Both the position numbers and the translations under genes were made by a program. A stretch of 5,297 nt of DNA from a virus (Duplodnaviria > Heunggongvirae > Uroviricota > Caudoviricetes): IMG/VR virus record IMGVR_UViG_2531839665_000011; one strand, given 5' to 3'. Below, in pieces: positions 2-5,297 of this stretch (the stretch's first letter is position 1; every line of letters begins with the position of its first letter). The notes beneath the pieces are model-generated. The model saw only the letters and a program-made list of their open reading frames with translations, was not told the DNA's origin and did not search any database.

Positions 2-973
2 AGCCAGCTTGCGGATGAGATGGCGGAGATGAAGACCACCATCACGAAACCCCGCAATGAAATCACACAGACGGTCAGTAAAACGCTGGAAGACCAGAGC
101 GCCACCATTCAGCAGATACAGCGCGTGCAGAAGGACACAAATGATGACCTGGCTGCGCTGTACATGCTGAAGGTTCAAAAAACGAAAGACGGCATTCCCT
201 ATGTGGCCGGTATTGGAGCGGGGATTGAGGATACTGATGGCCAGCCACTGAGCAACATACTGCTGCTGGCTGACCGTATCGCGATGATAAATCCGGAGAG
301 CGGCAACAGCACTCCGTTATTTGTGGCGCAGGGGAATCAGCTGTTCATGAACGACGTGTTCCTGAAGCGTCTGTTTGCGGCGAGTATCACGTCATCCGGC
401 AACCCCCCGACGTTTTCCCTGACGCCGGAAGGGAAGCTGACAGCCAGGAACGCGGATATCAGCGGAGCAATTACCGCGAATACCGGCACGCTCAATAATG
501 TCACCATTAACGAGAACTGTGTCATCAGAGGGAAACTGTCTGCAAACCAGATTGAAGGCGACCTGGTGAAGACGGTGGGGAAAGCCTTTCCCCGGAATAA
601 CAGTTATGCCAGCGGGACGGTAACCGTCACAGTTTACGATGACCAGGGCTTCGACCGGCAGATCATCATTCCCCCGGTGCTGTTTCGCGGGACGAAACAC
701 CAGAATTTCAACAGCCCGAATCAGCAGTCGTACTGGTATTCCACCTGTAAGCTGCAGGTGCTGAAGAACGGGGTTGAGATTTTCCATGAACCGGCAACGG
801 ATGTCAGCCGGGTGTTCTCATCGGTGATAGATATGCCGGCAGGGCGGGGTCATGTCACCCTGACGTTTAATGTGTCGTCGGCCGGTGCGAACAACTGGAC
901 GCCGACAACGTACATCAGTGATTTACTGGTTGTGGTGATGAAAAAATCCACAGCAGGTATCAGTATCAGCTGA
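2..973 (+). CDS. J: Phage tail tip host-specificity protein J (lambda J-like), C-terminal part; 5' end lies upstream of the window
   Basis: Reading frame is open from the first base of the window (no stop between 2 and the ATG at 20) to TGA at 971-973. Translation resembles the C-terminal receptor-binding region of lambda J as I recall it. Followed by a hairpin terminator and then lom and stf, the lambda gene order. Confidence 0.8.
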
Positions 974-990
974 ATTTTATAACCCAGAAC

Positions 991-1018
991 GGGCGTCAGA
1001 AATGACGCCTTTTTTATT
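991..1018 (+). terminator. Rho-independent terminator downstream of J (tJ-like)
   Basis: Stem GGCGTCA (992-998), loop GAAA, stem TGACGCC (1003-1009), then TTTTTTATT. Confidence 0.6.
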
Positions 1019-1039
1019 GCAGAAAAGCGAGAGGTAATT

Positions 1040-1433
1040 ATGCGTAAACTTTATGCCGCCATTTTGTCCGCAGCCATTTGTCTGGCCGTATCCGGTGCGC
1101 CTGCATGGGCGTCTGAACATCAGTCCACGCTGAGCGCGGGGTATCTTCATGTCTCGACGAACGTTCCCGGCAGCGATGATCTGAACGGGATTAACGTGAA
1201 ATACCGTTATGAGTTTACGGACACACTGGGGATGGTGACGTCTTTCAGCTATGCAGGAGACAAGAATCGCCAGCTGACCCATTACAGCGATACCCGCTGG
1301 CATGAAGATTCCGTTCGTAACCGCTGGTTCAGCGTGATGGCGGGGCCCTCTGTGCGCGTGAATGAATGGTTCAGCGCGTATGCGATGGCGGGCGTGGCTT
1401 ACAGCCGTGTGTCGACTTTTTCCGGGGATTATC
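1040..1433 (+). pseudogene. lom: lom 5' fragment (Ail/Lom/PagC-family outer membrane protein), interrupted by IS insertion
   Basis: RBS GAGAGG upstream of ATG 1040. Signal peptide MRKLYAAILSAAICLAVSGAPAWA, then sequence matching lambda Lom up to ...STFSGDYLR. The ORF then runs into IS terminal sequence (ITVKEIGE, stop at 1463-1465). The rest of Lom resumes at 4015. Confidence 0.85.
1429..1433. repeat. Target-site duplication, left copy (TTATC); alternative reading is a 7-bp ATTATCT at 1428-1434
   Basis: lom sequence ggggATTATCT is present at the left junction and ATTATCTccgcgtaactgac at the right junction; the overlap is the duplicated target. Confidence 0.5.
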
Positions 1434-1482
1434 TGCGTATTACCGTGAAGGAGATCGGTGAGTAACATCGATGGAGATCGGT
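1434..1482. repeat. IS left terminal inverted repeat region
   Basis: TGCGTATTACCGTGAAGGAGATCGGTGAGTAACATCGATGGAGATCGG pairs with the reverse complement of the right end, TGCGTATTTTCATGAAAGGAGATCACTCAATAACTTCCATCGAGATCGG. Confidence 0.6.
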
Positions 1483-1518
1483 TCGTGTCACTTTCACAGA
1501 ACCGTTTTTAAATTACCT

Positions 1519-2268
1519 TCACTGATCTCCTTCGGTCAACGGAGATTGTATTTTCCGCATTGATTCTCCTTTAAGTTCGATCTTGATACTGCCATGAACC
1601 AGTCGATCTAGGATGGCATCCGCATGTGTGGAGTCTCCGATCATTTTGTACCAGTTTTCCACCGGCAACTGGCTCACTACGATGATTGAGCCTCGTTGGT
1701 ACATCAGATCCACTATTTCCAGCAGGTCGCTACGCTGTTCTGATGAGAGAGGTTCCAGCCCCCAGTCATCCAGAAGCAGCAGATCGCTATTATTCAGCCT
1801 GGTCAAAAGTTTGCTGTATCTTCCATCAGCATGCCCCTGATAGCACTGTTCCATCAGCGCTTTAAGGCGATAATAGTAGACCTTGTATCCCTGTCGGCAG
1901 GCATTATGACCAAGTGCACATGCCAGGAACGTTTTACCGCTGCCGGTGGCCCCGGTCAGTAAAATATTTTGTTTCAGGGTTAACCAGTTTCCCTGACTGA
2001 GTGAACGGATGAGGGCCCTGTCCAGCCCTCTATTGTTACGATAATCCAGCTTTGATAACTCAGCATTAAGTCTGAACCGTGCATGTTTGATCAGACGCTC
2101 TGCCTTCCTGTTTTCACGGCAGGTTAGTTCTTCTGCTGTCAGTAATGACAGGCGTTCTTCGAAGCCCAGCTCCTGGTATGTGCCCGGCTGAGCAAGTTGC
2201 TTTTTAAGCGCATCACGGAAGCCGGTGAGTTTAAGTGCGGTCAGTTGTTCGTAAAGATGATTCATCAT
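1519..2268 (-). CDS. istB: IS21-family helper ATPase IstB (AAA+/DnaC-like)
   Basis: 249 aa. Walker A GATGSGKT and Walker B LLLLDDWG. Start ATG at 2266-2268 preceded by GGGA, 11 nt after the istA stop. Confidence 0.9.
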   Translation of the reverse strand: MMNHLYEQLTALKLTGFRDALKKQLAQPGTYQELGFEERLSLLTAEELTCRENRKAERLIKHARFRLNAELSKLDYRNNRGLDRALIRSLSQGNWLTLKQNILLTGATGSGKTFLACALGHNACRQGYKVYYYRLKALMEQCYQGHADGRYSKLLTRLNNSDLLLLDDWGLEPLSSEQRSDLLEIVDLMYQRGSIIVVSQLPVENWYKMIGDSTHADAILDRLVHGSIKIELKGESMRKIQSPLTEGDQ

Positions 2269-2279
2269 TGGATCCCGTA

Positions 2280-3281
2280 TCAGTGGTAATACTCACTGCC
2301 GCGTACGTTTTCGTGTTCCATCGTGGATAACAGATCTGGTTTTGGATCCTGAACAGGTTGTTTATCCAGACCTTTTTCCAGGATCGATTTAATACCTGAC
2401 AGACGCCATACCTTTGTTTTCAGAGCTCTTGCACATGCTGCATTAAGTCTGGCTTTACTGTATTTTTTATGAAGGTTCAGGAGTCCAAGGCAGAAGCGAT
2501 AGCTTTGTTCCGGATGTGGACGAGAGTTCAGTATATGAAGCACATAACTATGAGTTTCACTGCCTATGTGCCCCGCCCATTCCAGAAGACGCTCTGGCGT
2601 CCAGGTGGCATGCTGTCGATGAGCTTCAGGCATGTGCTCGTTGCGGGTACTGTAGCCATAAGTACGCTTGCGCGGGTGCACAGCAACCTCCTGCCCCTGA
2701 TTGAAGAGTCTTACCAGTTCTCCGGAGATCCATGCTTCCAGTTGCTGGCCTAACAGCGAACATGGAACCGAGTAGTAATGTTTGTCGATTTCCACGTGGT
2801 AATCGGCATGAACTCTGACTTTCTTCACCAGGGTGTAACTGTAACTGGCTTCAGGAAGAGGCTTCAGTGCGGGTTTATCAAGCTGGATGAAGAGTTCTGC
2901 ACGTGAATAACCCAACTTCTGCATTATTTTGTTATTCAGTCTTTCCAGCAACTCCCGAATGCGCTGATTAAGCGATGCAAGGCTGTAGAAGATCTCATGC
3001 CTGATTCGGGCCATGATCCAGCGTTCAACAACCTGAACGCCAACTTCAGCTTTGGCTTTATCTTTCGGTTTACGTGGCCGCGCAGGCAAAACTGCGACAT
3101 TATAATGCTCAAGCATCTGCTGGTAGGTAGGGTTAACGTCAGGATCATACTTACATGCCCTGGATGTGGCGCTTTTCAGATTGTCCGGAACAACAAGTTC
3201 AGGAACGCCACCCAACCACTGGAAGCAGCGAACATGACTCATCACCCAGTCTTCAAGCTGCTGAGACCAGGTGGTCTCTGC
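2280..3281 (-). CDS. istA: IS21-family transposase IstA, C-terminal catalytic part (downstream of an in-frame amber codon)
   Basis: Same frame as the N-terminal ORF. Contains VVPDNLKS (second Asp of DDE) and [14 protein letters not shown] (Glu of DDE). Translation is continuous across the 36 nt between the amber codon and the first internal GTG/ATG ([25 protein letters not shown]). Confidence 0.75.
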
Positions 3282-3821
3282 CTATGTGTAACTTGATGCC
3301 CCGAGAACAGCTACGATGACCTGAGCAGTTCTTATTTCTCCGGTCTCAGGGTCGGTAACGCCAACGGTAGGTCCACAGTAATCAACGAAAAGTTTTTCGC
3401 CAGCTTTATGTACCTGACGCATTGATGGTGAAGTGGTTTTGAGCCATTCACGGTACATCCGGCAGTAATGGTTATAGCTGTAAAAACCGCCTGGATTACG
3501 CTCACAGTATTCTTCCCAGAGTAGCTGCAGCGTCACGCATTTATTACGCAGTTCCCGGTGTACTGTAGCCCAGTCAGGCAGAGAGTGCTTCTTCATCTTA
3601 ACCTGGGTCTGAAGGAACGCATGTTTTAGTTTTGTATCATCCCATCCTGTAGGTAAGGGCCACTGCTTTATGCCAAGTTGAGCCGCCCGATTAGCATATC
3701 TGGATACAACGGAAGGGGAGATTGCAAGACTACGACCAATTTGTCGATGGCTGAGTCCAACACCGTATTTAAGCCTAAGAATTTCTTTAAGTTTTCTCAT
3801 AGAAATTGGAACTGTTGGCAT
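3282..3821 (-). CDS. istA: IS21-family transposase IstA, N-terminal part (HTH and first catalytic Asp region), ending at an in-frame TAG
   Basis: ATG at 3819-3821 with AAGGA 7 nt upstream. HTH-like LSHRQIGRSLAISPSVVSRY. LFVDYCG resembles the first DDE Asp region of IS21 IstA. Ends ...GASSYT at amber codon (plus-strand cta, 3282-3284). Confidence 0.75.
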   Translation of the reverse strand: MPTVPISMRKLKEILRLKYGVGLSHRQIGRSLAISPSVVSRYANRAAQLGIKQWPLPTGWDDTKLKHAFLQTQVKMKKHSLPDWATVHRELRNKCVTLQLLWEEYCERNPGGFYSYNHYCRMYREWLKTTSPSMRQVHKAGEKLFVDYCGPTVGVTDPETGEIRTAQVIVAVLGASSYT

Positions 3822-3885
3822 AGGTATCCTTTACCGGAATGGCAAAAGATACAGATCAACACACCTGTGAAGTTCCAATAACATT

Positions 3886-3997
3886 GATGGAGATCACTGA
3901 ATAACAAAATGAGTCAAAAGTGATCTCCATCGATGTTATTCAGCGATCTGTTCAAATGTTATTACCCGATCTCGATGGAAGTTATTGAGTGATCTCC
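3886..3997. repeat. Iterated terminal repeats at the IS right end (putative IstA binding sites)
   Basis: Motif GTTATT-N4-GATCTC(C) as three direct copies at 3935-3950, 3958-3973 and 3981-3997 (23-bp spacing) plus one inverted copy at 3889-3905. Perfect 12-bp inverted repeat GATGGAGATCAC (3886-3897) / GTGATCTCCATC (3920-3931). Confidence 0.7.
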
Positions 3998-4014
3998 TTT
4001 CATGAAAATACGCA
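3966..4014. repeat. IS right terminal inverted repeat region
   Basis: Reverse complement matches the left end with a few mismatches and indels; ends ...AATACGCA. Confidence 0.6.
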
Positions 4015-4019
4015 TTATC
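4015..4019. repeat. Target-site duplication, right copy (TTATC); alternative 7-bp ATTATCT at 4014-4020
   Basis: Same lom-derived sequence as at 1429-1433. Confidence 0.5.
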
Positions 4020-4225
4020 TCCGCGTAACTGACAACAAGGGGAAAACGCATGATGTGCTGACCGGAAGTGATGACGGTCGCCACAGCAACACGTCTCTGG
4101 CGTGGGGGGCTGGCGTGCAGTTTAACCCGACCGAATCCGTGGCCATTGATATTGCTTATGAAGGCTCCGGCAGTGGCGACTGGCGCACTGACGGTTTCAT
4201 CGTGGGTGTCGGTTATAAGTTCTGA
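4015..4225 (+). pseudogene. lom: lom 3' fragment (C-terminal ~70 codons of Lom)
   Basis: Translation YLRVTDNKGKTHDVLTGSDDGRHSNTSLAWGAGVQFNPTESVAIDIAYEGSGSGDWRTDGFIVGVGYKF matches the Lom C-terminus; stop TGA at 4223-4225. The listed ORF start (GTG 3989) lies inside the IS end. Confidence 0.85.
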
Positions 4226-4251
4226 TTAGCCAGGTAACACAGTGTTATGAC

Positions 4252-4279
4252 AGCCCGCCGGTTCAGGCGGGCTTTTTTG
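4252..4279 (+). terminator. Rho-independent terminator downstream of lom
   Basis: Perfect 8-bp stem AGCCCGCC (4252-4259) / GGCGGGCT (4266-4273), 6-nt loop, then a T-run. Confidence 0.6.
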
Positions 4280-4289
4280 TGGGGTGAAT

Positions 4290-5297
4290 ATGGCAGTAAA
4301 GATTTCAGGTGTACTGAAAGACGGCACAGGAAAACCGGTAGAGAACTGCACCATTCAACTGAAAGCCAGACGGACCAGCAGCACGGTGGTGGTGAACACG
4401 GTGGCCTCTGAAAATCCGGATGAAGCCGGTCGTTACAGCATGGACGTTGAGTACGGTCAGTACAGCGTCATTCTGTTGGTGGAAGGATTCCCGCCGTCAC
4501 ATGCCGGGACCATCACCGTGTATGAAGATTCTCAACCCGGTACGCTGAATGATTTTCTCGGTGCCATGTCGGAGGATGACGTCCGGCCGGAGGCACTGCG
4601 CCGTTTTGAACTGATGGTGGAAGAGGTGGCGCGTCACGCTGAGGAGGCGAAGAAGAATGCCGGAGAGGCGGAGACGTCAGCGAGGAATGCCGGCATATCA
4701 GCCAGTCAGGCAGAAGAGAGCGCTGCAAATGCTGACACTTCAGCAGGGGAGGCATCGGAGTCAGCCCGGCAGGCGGCAGAAAGTGCAGCCTCAGCAAAGC
4801 AGTCAGAGGATGCGTCCTCGTCCTCGGCTTCTGCGGCCGCTCAAAAAGCCAGTGAGTCATCACAAAGTGCAGCAGAAGCTGAATTGTCAAGAAAGACGGC
4901 AGAAAGTGCAGCCGGTAATGCAGCCAGGGATGCAACGACCGCAACAGAAAAAGCCCGGGAGTCAGCAGAAAGCGCACAGTCAGCGGAACAAAGCAGGATA
5001 GCGGCGGAAGAGGCCGTAAACCGAATCCCCACCGTGGTGGGACCTCCCGGGCCAAAGGGGGGAACAGGGGGCCCGCGGGTCCTCAGGGGCCGAAGGGTGA
5101 TAAGGGAGAGCGCGGTGACACCGGCCCTGTCGGGGCAACCGGCGAACGGGGACCGGCAGGTGATGCTGGTCCGGCAGGCCCGCAGGGGCCGAAAGGTGAC
5201 AGGGGAGAGCGGGGAGAGACCGGTCTGACGGGAAAATGCAGGTCCACAGGGTCCAAAGGGAGATACCGGTGCGGCAGGCCCGGCAGGCCCACAGGGA
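4290..5297 (+). CDS. stf: Side tail fibre protein Stf (lambda stf/orf401-like), N-terminal part continuing beyond the window; reading frame disturbed in the collagen-like region
   Basis: [17 protein letters not shown]...[25 protein letters not shown] matches the lambda Stf N-terminus, so ATG 4290 is the likely start rather than GTG 4284. Ala/Ser/Glu-rich segment, then Gly-X-Y collagen-like repeats from ~5040. Frame 0 hits TGA at 5226-5228 only because of frame slips at 5057-5071; the Gly-X-Y phase continues in another frame and returns to frame 0 after 5237. Confidence 0.8.
5040..5297 (+). repeat. Collagen-like Gly-X-Y triplet-repeat coding region within stf
   Basis: GPPGPKG (frame 0), then [56 protein letters not shown] (frame +2), then [19 protein letters not shown] (frame 0 again). 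Confidence 0.75.

Follow-up and report, generated by a model that had tools for sequence, protein, structure and literature searches.

The sequence described here is the 5,297-nucleotide (nt) virus record IMGVR_UViG_2531839665_000011 of IMG/VR, hereafter referred to as the window. The whole 5,297-bp window corresponds to contig AFAA02000031.1 of the draft assembly GCA_000194495.2 of Escherichia coli 4.0967, and both of its edges are contig ends. E. coli 4.0967 is listed with serotype O145:H2, Stx2, and JCVI as the sequencing center (Table 1 of PMC3359367). The window is the J-lom-stf junction of a lambdoid prophage in this Shiga-toxin-producing E. coli (STEC). According to the list of open reading frames (ORFs) and the Pfam domains, its genes follow the order J 3′ end, terminator, lom, and stf, of which J encodes the tail-tip/host-specificity protein, lom an outer-membrane protein, and stf the side tail fiber (Table 1, below). 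An initial annotation, prepared from the letters alone, had described a lambda-like J-lom-stf synteny, a lom gene disrupted by an insertion sequence (IS), a nonsense codon in the IS transposase, and frame-disrupting homopolymer indels in stf. The synteny is borne out by the ORFs and the Pfam domains, and the three lesions are likewise present as described in the deposited sequence.

The reading frame of lom is interrupted at codon 131-132 by a 2,581-bp element inserted after nt 1433, and the 5′ ORF reads into the IS and stops at 1463-1465. The boundaries of this minus-strand insertion were defined by comparison with the uninterrupted lom of E. coli O157:H7 LSU61, and TTATC is found on each side as a target-site duplication (TSD). 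In-silico excision of the element together with one repeat yields a 600-nt Lom ORF of 199 amino acids (aa), which is matched by Pfam Ail_Lom over residues 1-199 of 199 (402 bits). The same lom/IS junctions are found in the complete genome of strain JB2, whose annotation lists the lom 5′ fragment as an Ail/Lom protein lacking its C-terminus, and in five further drafts (L009-L013) that were reached via the 141-aa Lom′ product; an exact-pattern scan of the viral contig collection returned no match for the junction pattern. Because the TSD and the exact restoration of Lom are accompanied by the same junctions in a complete genome and five drafts, the ISEc12 insertion in lom is genuine and inherited. 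Lambda grows without lom, a lysogenic-conversion gene, and the insertion inactivates Lom only, i.e., an accessory outer-membrane protein dispensable for phage growth.

Table 1. Features of the window and, in the last row, further ISEc12 copies in other records. Positions are those of the window unless a record is named.
Feature	Position	Strand	Basis
J (tail-tip/host-specificity), 3′ part, 323 codons, open to the left contig end	2..973	+	ORF; Pfam Phage_Tail_Tip, Ig_GpJ_C; JB2 annotation gpJ
Private homopolymer anomaly at the left contig end, ACGAAACCCC vs AC(C/G)GAAACCC in all relatives	46..53	+	alignment
Intrinsic-terminator-like hairpin and T-run 3′ of J	991..1018	+	
lom 5′ fragment, 131 codons + 1 nt	1040..1433	+	ORFs; JB2 annotation
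Target-site duplication, left copy, TTATC	1429..1433	.	empty site in O157:H7 LSU61
ISEc12 (IS21 family), 2,581 bp	1434..4014	-	identity to annotated copies; ends and inverted repeats
istB helper ATPase, intact, 249 aa (248 aa from the second ATG)	1519..2268	-	NCBIfam, Pfam
istA transposase frame, 513 codons, amber-interrupted	2280..3821	-	NCBIfam with W restored
Amber TAG replacing TGG (W180)	3282..3284	-	same stop annotated as 'internal stop' in JB2
Target-site duplication, right copy, TTATC	4015..4019	.	
lom 3′ fragment including the stop codon	4015..4225	+	
Strong intrinsic-terminator-like hairpin and T-run 3′ of lom, 8 pairs, 7 G-C	4252..4281	+	
stf 5′ three-quarters, from ATG 4290, open at the right contig end	4290..5297	+	Pfam on the corrected translation
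G6 run vs G5 in all complete genomes (+1)	5057..5062	+	alignment
G5 run vs G4 in all complete genomes (+1)	5067..5071	+	alignment
TGA reached by the shifted frame; stop of EII34029.1	5226..5228	+	
A4 run vs A3 in relatives (+1)	5231..5234	+	alignment
Other ISEc12 copies at the tail-fiber end of lambdoid prophages	L003 2501-5081; L004, L005 (minus); L014 5883-8463 (minus)		

The assignment of the inserted element to ISEc12 is based on its identity to annotated copies, its ends, and its genes. Over all 2,581 bp, it shares 99.9-100% identity with annotated ISEc12 copies in >1,700 RefSeq records, and it is 100% identical to the JB2 copy. The ends of the element, TGCGTATT...AATACGCA, correspond to TG...CA, and these termini and the length of the duplication agree with those of the IS21 family (TSD of 4-8 bp). 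The terminal inverted repeats are imperfect, approximately 24 bp in length, and contain repeated GGAGATC motifs. Furthermore, the two-gene organization of IS21 elements is present, i.e., istA (helix-turn-helix and DDE/rve domains) is followed by istB (AAA+), with matches to Pfam rve and IstB_IS21. The istA product scores 308 bits against NCBIfam transpos_IS21 when W180 is restored (cut-off, 160), and the istB product scores 270 bits against NCBIfam IS21_help_AAA (cut-off, 200).

The nonsense codon of the transposase is a TAG at a position where intact ISEc12 reads TGG (W180), within the rve catalytic core (aa 139-252). Compared with the intact ISEc12 of strain 1162C, the window IS differs at 3 of 2,581 positions, one of which is the W180 change (TGG>TAG), and a linked G>A change is located at 3275. 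Both IS ends and istB are intact in the window copy; the transposase gene is not uninterrupted, and the copy is non-autonomous. At the lom site, JB2 and those drafts whose contigs span the whole IS (L009-L011) carry exactly the IS sequence of the window, stop included; the amber codon is genuine.

In the assembly collection, 97 index blocks contain the exact 179-aa amber product, and the insertion sites of the amber copies were read from the ten places returned for this product; the amber-copy records compared were L016-L021 and L023-L024, together with the plasmid records L029-L031. The amber copies occupy several unrelated sites, at least four besides lom, and comprise four haplotypes, and three of the sites have TSDs of their own (TGCTGGC, TCTGG, and CATGG). 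The haplotype of the window, with its three single-nucleotide polymorphisms (SNPs), is also found on F-like plasmids of swine isolates from China, the USA, and South Korea, where it lies in the leading region, within the ParB-family gene flanked by ssb and psiB. The two-SNP amber form is rare, being present in 7 of 1,904 complete-genome records, and is plasmid-borne in six of the seven. Because the amber allele occupies several other sites, it very probably existed before the lom insertion, as judged from the compared copies. An element already bearing the stop would have entered lom, presumably moved by the transposase of another copy. For mini-IS21 constructs, trans-complementation is established. 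On balance, we lean toward W180amber ISEc12 being a successful non-autonomous lineage, which, once it had acquired the stop, would have spread into lom, into F-like plasmids at their leading region, and to several places on the chromosome. If true, this implies that wild-type copies provided IstA that mobilized the element efficiently in trans; a degree of tolerance of the stop is a less likely alternative. As a separate observation, two amber copies that share a haplotype (L016 3808-6388 and L020 1704-4284) have flanks without a matching target duplication, which suggests IS-mediated rearrangement or recombination between copies.

The strongest competing explanation is that the amber codon arose in situ after the insertion into lom and is an independent second lesion, the other amber copies being derived, recurrent, or converted. 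The stop is present in all lom-site copies, no lom-site copy with TGG was found with which the events could be ordered, and the JB2 chromosome has one ISEc12 place, with no helper copy visible there. However, these points are outweighed by the distribution of the allele: amber copies are located at other sites with their own TSDs and in four haplotypes, three of which do not have the linked change of the lom copy at IS position 740 and are therefore not its descendants unless reverted, and the two-SNP allele is mostly plasmid-borne among complete-genome records. Even with the lom copy as the founder, a defective element still had to move. In-situ origin of the stop is thus considered unlikely, and the insertion in lom and its amber codon are one event in a dispensable gene rather than two steps of decay.

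The lesions in stf are three single-base insertions, each of which lengthens a homopolymer in the alignment to JB2 and LSU61. The third insertion (A4) would return the frame to register 3 nt past the spurious TGA. Deletion of the three bases yields a 335-aa open frame with unbroken G-X-Y repeats, 334 of its 335 residues being identical to LSU61 Stf, and the corrected translation comprises Pfam phage_tail_N, an Ala/Ser/Glu-rich linker, and Collagen (G-X-Y repeats). The combination of phage_tail_N and collagen-like repeats in a single frame, which is characteristic of Stf, is thus broken in the deposited sequence and open once the three bases are removed. The GenBank product EII34029.1 (UniRef100_A0AAN3V3J3; 280 aa, 4386-5228) has a late start at 4386 and carries 58 out-of-frame residues at its C-terminus, and the 312-aa Stf product from ATG 4290 is not on record in an exact-product look-up. 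Any upstream net +2 frameshift would yield a peptide identical to this out-of-frame Stf tail. The 90% cluster of UniRef100_A0AAN3V3J3 has 718 members; those listed are mostly partial tail-fiber proteins on short contigs, implying that assemblies often break in stf.

All three insertions are located within the final 241 nt of the contig. Homologous stf sequences were found at 5,818 places in 712 complete genomes (median, nine places per genome among the genomes carrying the region); the best of these matches at 305 of 308 positions, and none of the three insertions is shared. The orthologous stf of JB2, the sole complete genome with the same lom::ISEc12 prophage, is intact (1,314 nt). At the opposite end of the contig, J carries a private anomaly in which one base is lost and one C is gained (-1/+1), so that the frame is retained and ET is changed to KP; this anomaly is absent from 2,991 homologous complete-genome places (best match, 158/160). 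By contrast, the interior of the contig (approximately 5 kb) has zero indels relative to JB2 and the five other drafts, and the 17 other homopolymers of ≥5 nt in the window all agree with JB2. The five length changes all fall inside the terminal 53 + 241 nt, for which the chance is approximately 5e-7 if changes are uniform along 5,297 nt.

Exact-pattern scans for the double G insertion retrieved one other sequence, the IMG/VR contig L007, which is AEZU02000040.1 (GCA_000194335.2); the genome contig and metagenome contig collections gave no match. Both the strain and the prophage differ from those of the window, and in AEZU02000040.1 lom is intact and J is another allele. The contig belongs to a neighboring whole-genome shotgun project of the same period, the adjacent accession prefixes indicating a JCVI batch. 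It ends in the same part of stf, 31 nt before the point that the window reaches. Besides the two G insertions shared with the window, it has two more, one of the four being outside any homopolymer, and its other 11.5 kb have no indel relative to the near-identical complete-genome counterpart in O111:H8 7-54 11A, whose stf is intact. The possibility that AEZU02000040.1 and the window represent the same genome was rejected, since AEZU02 is a separate assembly; the shared insertions consequently stem from the pipeline or the sequence context, not from one read set. The anomalies are thus found at contig ends only, are absent from independent sequences, and recur in the same pipeline. It is very likely that the stf insertions are consensus errors introduced where the assembler met a collapsed multi-copy repeat, and the real stf of the window prophage is most likely intact. 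The contig would begin and stop within J and stf, both presumably repeated among the several lambdoid prophages of the strain, and the -1/+1 pair at the left end would likewise be a consensus error at a multi-copy repeat.

Alternatively, the frameshifts of stf may be real, in which case the side tail fiber gene would have become a pseudogene and, with the split lom, would point to a cryptic prophage in decay. The frameshifts are present in the deposited sequence, and frameshifted stf genes occur in nature, with lambda PaPa as the classic case; Hendrix and Duda reportedly described in 1992 that laboratory lambda PaPa has a frameshifted stf. Both lom and stf are dispensable for growth and plaque formation of lambda. 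Furthermore, the JB2 ortholog bears another IS, an IS21 by the repressor gene, suggesting that the lineage collects insertions. Nevertheless, real stf mutations are improbable, given that the three insertions occur in 0 of the 5,818 homologous places, that stf is intact in the only complete genome with the same prophage, that the length changes are confined to the two contig ends with an indel-free interior, and that two of the insertions recur at a contig end in another strain and prophage of the same batch, whose complete-genome counterpart has an intact stf. Slippage at G-runs of the collagen-like region, which would render the side tail fiber phase-variable, is a still weaker candidate. 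The same two G-run expansions are found in two strains and prophages, and the three insertions of the window total +3; however, G-runs of this length (4-6) are short for switching by slippage, the 5,818 complete-genome copies have zero length variation, one of the four insertions in AEZU02000040.1 is outside any homopolymer, the stop codon of the window precedes restoration of the frame by 3 nt, and both cases are located at contig ends, making phase variation highly improbable. Finally, although ISEc12 is multi-copy in many E. coli and IS elements often produce misjoins, a repeat-induced assembly chimera at the lom::IS junction is next to impossible, considering the perfect 5-bp TSD, the exactly restored lom, and the presence of both junctions in a complete genome and five drafts from different projects.

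The comparison with the orthologous prophage of a related strain, which the initial annotation had proposed, showed that JB2 has the same lom::ISEc12 with the amber codon and an intact stf. The JB2 prophage (NZ_CP182203.1) is approximately 50 kb and lies between the yccA side and the tRNA-Ser/hya side. Its lom::ISEc12 junctions and IS sequence are identical to those of the window, whereas its stf is intact and is a different allele. Annotated genes include integrase, exonuclease, LexA-family repressor, Cro, replication genes, RusA, and Q, as well as holin, lysozyme, lysis protein, terminase, capsid, portal, head-tail genes, and a complete tail set, and a sodC moron is located just upstream of J. 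The only additional lesion in JB2 is the IS21 inserted beside the LexA-family repressor gene. The portal gene, annotated as 'frameshifted' (2,585 nt; L001 5459-8043), is the sole annotated lesion in an essential gene. This annotation was considered as a sign of decay and rejected, since the portal is annotated identically and has the same length in unrelated complete genomes, O157:H7 TT12B and O111:NM 14614 (L027 and L028, both 410-2994), and across the top hits of 1,252 records the length of the portal region does not vary. A 222-nt ORF overlaps the start of the portal gene, and the portal 'frameshift' could be a conserved feature (programmed frameshift) or a systematic annotation artifact.

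The window itself contains J′, lom, and stf′ only and shows no loss of essential phage function; in the JB2 ortholog, all modules are annotated. The initial annotation had counted three separate lesions and proposed either a decaying prophage or an error-prone assembly. The count does not stand, since the lom insertion and the amber codon are one event and the stf lesions are probably artefactual. Of the decay proposal, the genuine and inherited lom::IS and amber codon remain, whereas loss of phage function is not seen and stf does not serve as evidence. Assembly error applies to both contig ends and not to the interior, which has zero indels relative to six independent assemblies. The advice of caution before trusting the ORFs of this region was justified. 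Taken together, we hold with good confidence that a single lom::ISEc12 event carrying an older amber codon, errors at the contig ends, and a likely intact stf account for the window.

Several points weigh against this explanation. The evidence for an artefact in stf is circumstantial, and the two G insertions common to two independent drafts could in principle be a genuine allele that both carry; the literature searched did not give the sequencing technology used for the JCVI batch. Before nt 5057, the window differs from JB2 by one SNP only (4439), positions 46-53 aside, and between 5157 and 5264 the two stf sequences differ at 12 substitution positions, the final approximately 140 nt of the window following the LSU61/AEZU02000040.1 allele. 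For this final stretch, either the prophage copies are mosaic, so that the allele switch would be genuine, or reads of paralogous prophages were assembled into the contig end as a collapsed repeat. The amber codon could also have spread through gene conversion among IS copies or through repeated G>A mutation, with no transposition of a defective copy. Furthermore, JB2 is a proxy only for the rest of the 4.0967 prophage.

ISEc12 is also found elsewhere in tail-fiber regions. In strain 1162C, it is inserted at another position of lom in the opposite orientation, in OkiPb01716 it is in stf, and in IGC_RcoliRes_1.1 it is in tfa; additional copies at the tail-fiber end of lambdoid prophages are included in Table 1. 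The database matches H2 and H3, as well as H54 from the search with the IS alone, were rejected as the same lom::ISEc12 event, because in these the IS is in stf, in tfa, or at another position and orientation of lom. The deposited complete phage genome PhiR12_1 (listed host, K-12 MG1655) contains an intact ISEc12 inside a tail-fiber gene, and the presence of an IS in this region therefore does not by itself mark a phage as defective; the literature searched contained no paper on the PhiR12 phages. The repeated occurrence of ISEc12 in the tail-fiber end reflects either target preference or tolerance in a dispensable region.

Two further observations concern the compared prophages. In AEZU02000040.1, an antirepressor gene between the tail genes L and K is represented by two overlapping ORFs (3935-4980), and the annotation of the near-identical complete genome calls it 'frameshifted' (L026 5558-6480). 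Unlike the frameshifts of stf, that of the antirepressor is real, because the interior of AEZU02000040.1 has no indel relative to the complete genome. In JB2, type III effector genes, i.e., an EspF-repeat protein and a truncated EspV, are located downstream of the tail-fiber genes; the corresponding JB2 records are L006 17049-19018 and L001 16836-17363 and 26001-27591 (IS21/repressor, sodC, and effector region).

These results have implications for the use of short prophage contigs. As illustrated by EII34029.1, contig-end errors in repeat-rich prophage genes seed spurious truncated proteins and false pseudogene calls in databases. Lesion counts in a short contig overstate prophage decay: of the three lesions counted here, two stem from a single event in a dispensable gene, and the third is unlikely to be real. 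Furthermore, the lom::ISEc12 junction together with the amber allele can serve as a lineage marker for this prophage, as it is common to the STEC O145:H2 strain, an isolate from a rabbit farm, and several further drafts.

All elements of the window are of known kinds, i.e., a lambda-type J-lom-stf region, a catalogued IS21 element with the usual 5-bp TSD, and unreliable ends of a draft contig. The occurrence of amber ISEc12 at several sites is an only mildly unexpected by-product and suggests a non-autonomous lineage mobilized in trans. Contig-end and collapsed-repeat errors are known to affect the last few hundred bases of contigs in multi-copy prophage genes and to be private to an assembly; the window matches this description, with no difference in kind. 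The end of the lambda late region has the gene order J - lom - stf (orf401/orf314) - tfa, which is the order in the window. The window further resembles lambda in the terminator-like hairpins after J and lom, in the C-terminal receptor-binding domain of J, in Lom as an eight-stranded barrel of the Ail/Lom type, and in Stf with a 'prophage tail fibre N-terminal' domain. However, the Stf of the window is of the short form of enterohemorrhagic E. coli prophages (437 aa, with collagen-like G-X-Y repeats), whereas lambda Stf comprises 774 aa; unlike in lambda, lom is IS-disrupted in the window, and the frameshift of its stf is probably not real. The closest counterpart of the insertion is tssM::ISEc12 of E. 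coli ST131 (clade C/H30), which has a 5-bp target duplication (PMC10711316). Both are 2,581-bp istA+istB elements with TG..CA ends and a 5-bp TSD, and in both, a simple insertion inactivates a gene and is afterward inherited as a lineage marker. The lom copy differs from the tssM::ISEc12 system in its W180amber istA and hence encodes no full-length transposase.

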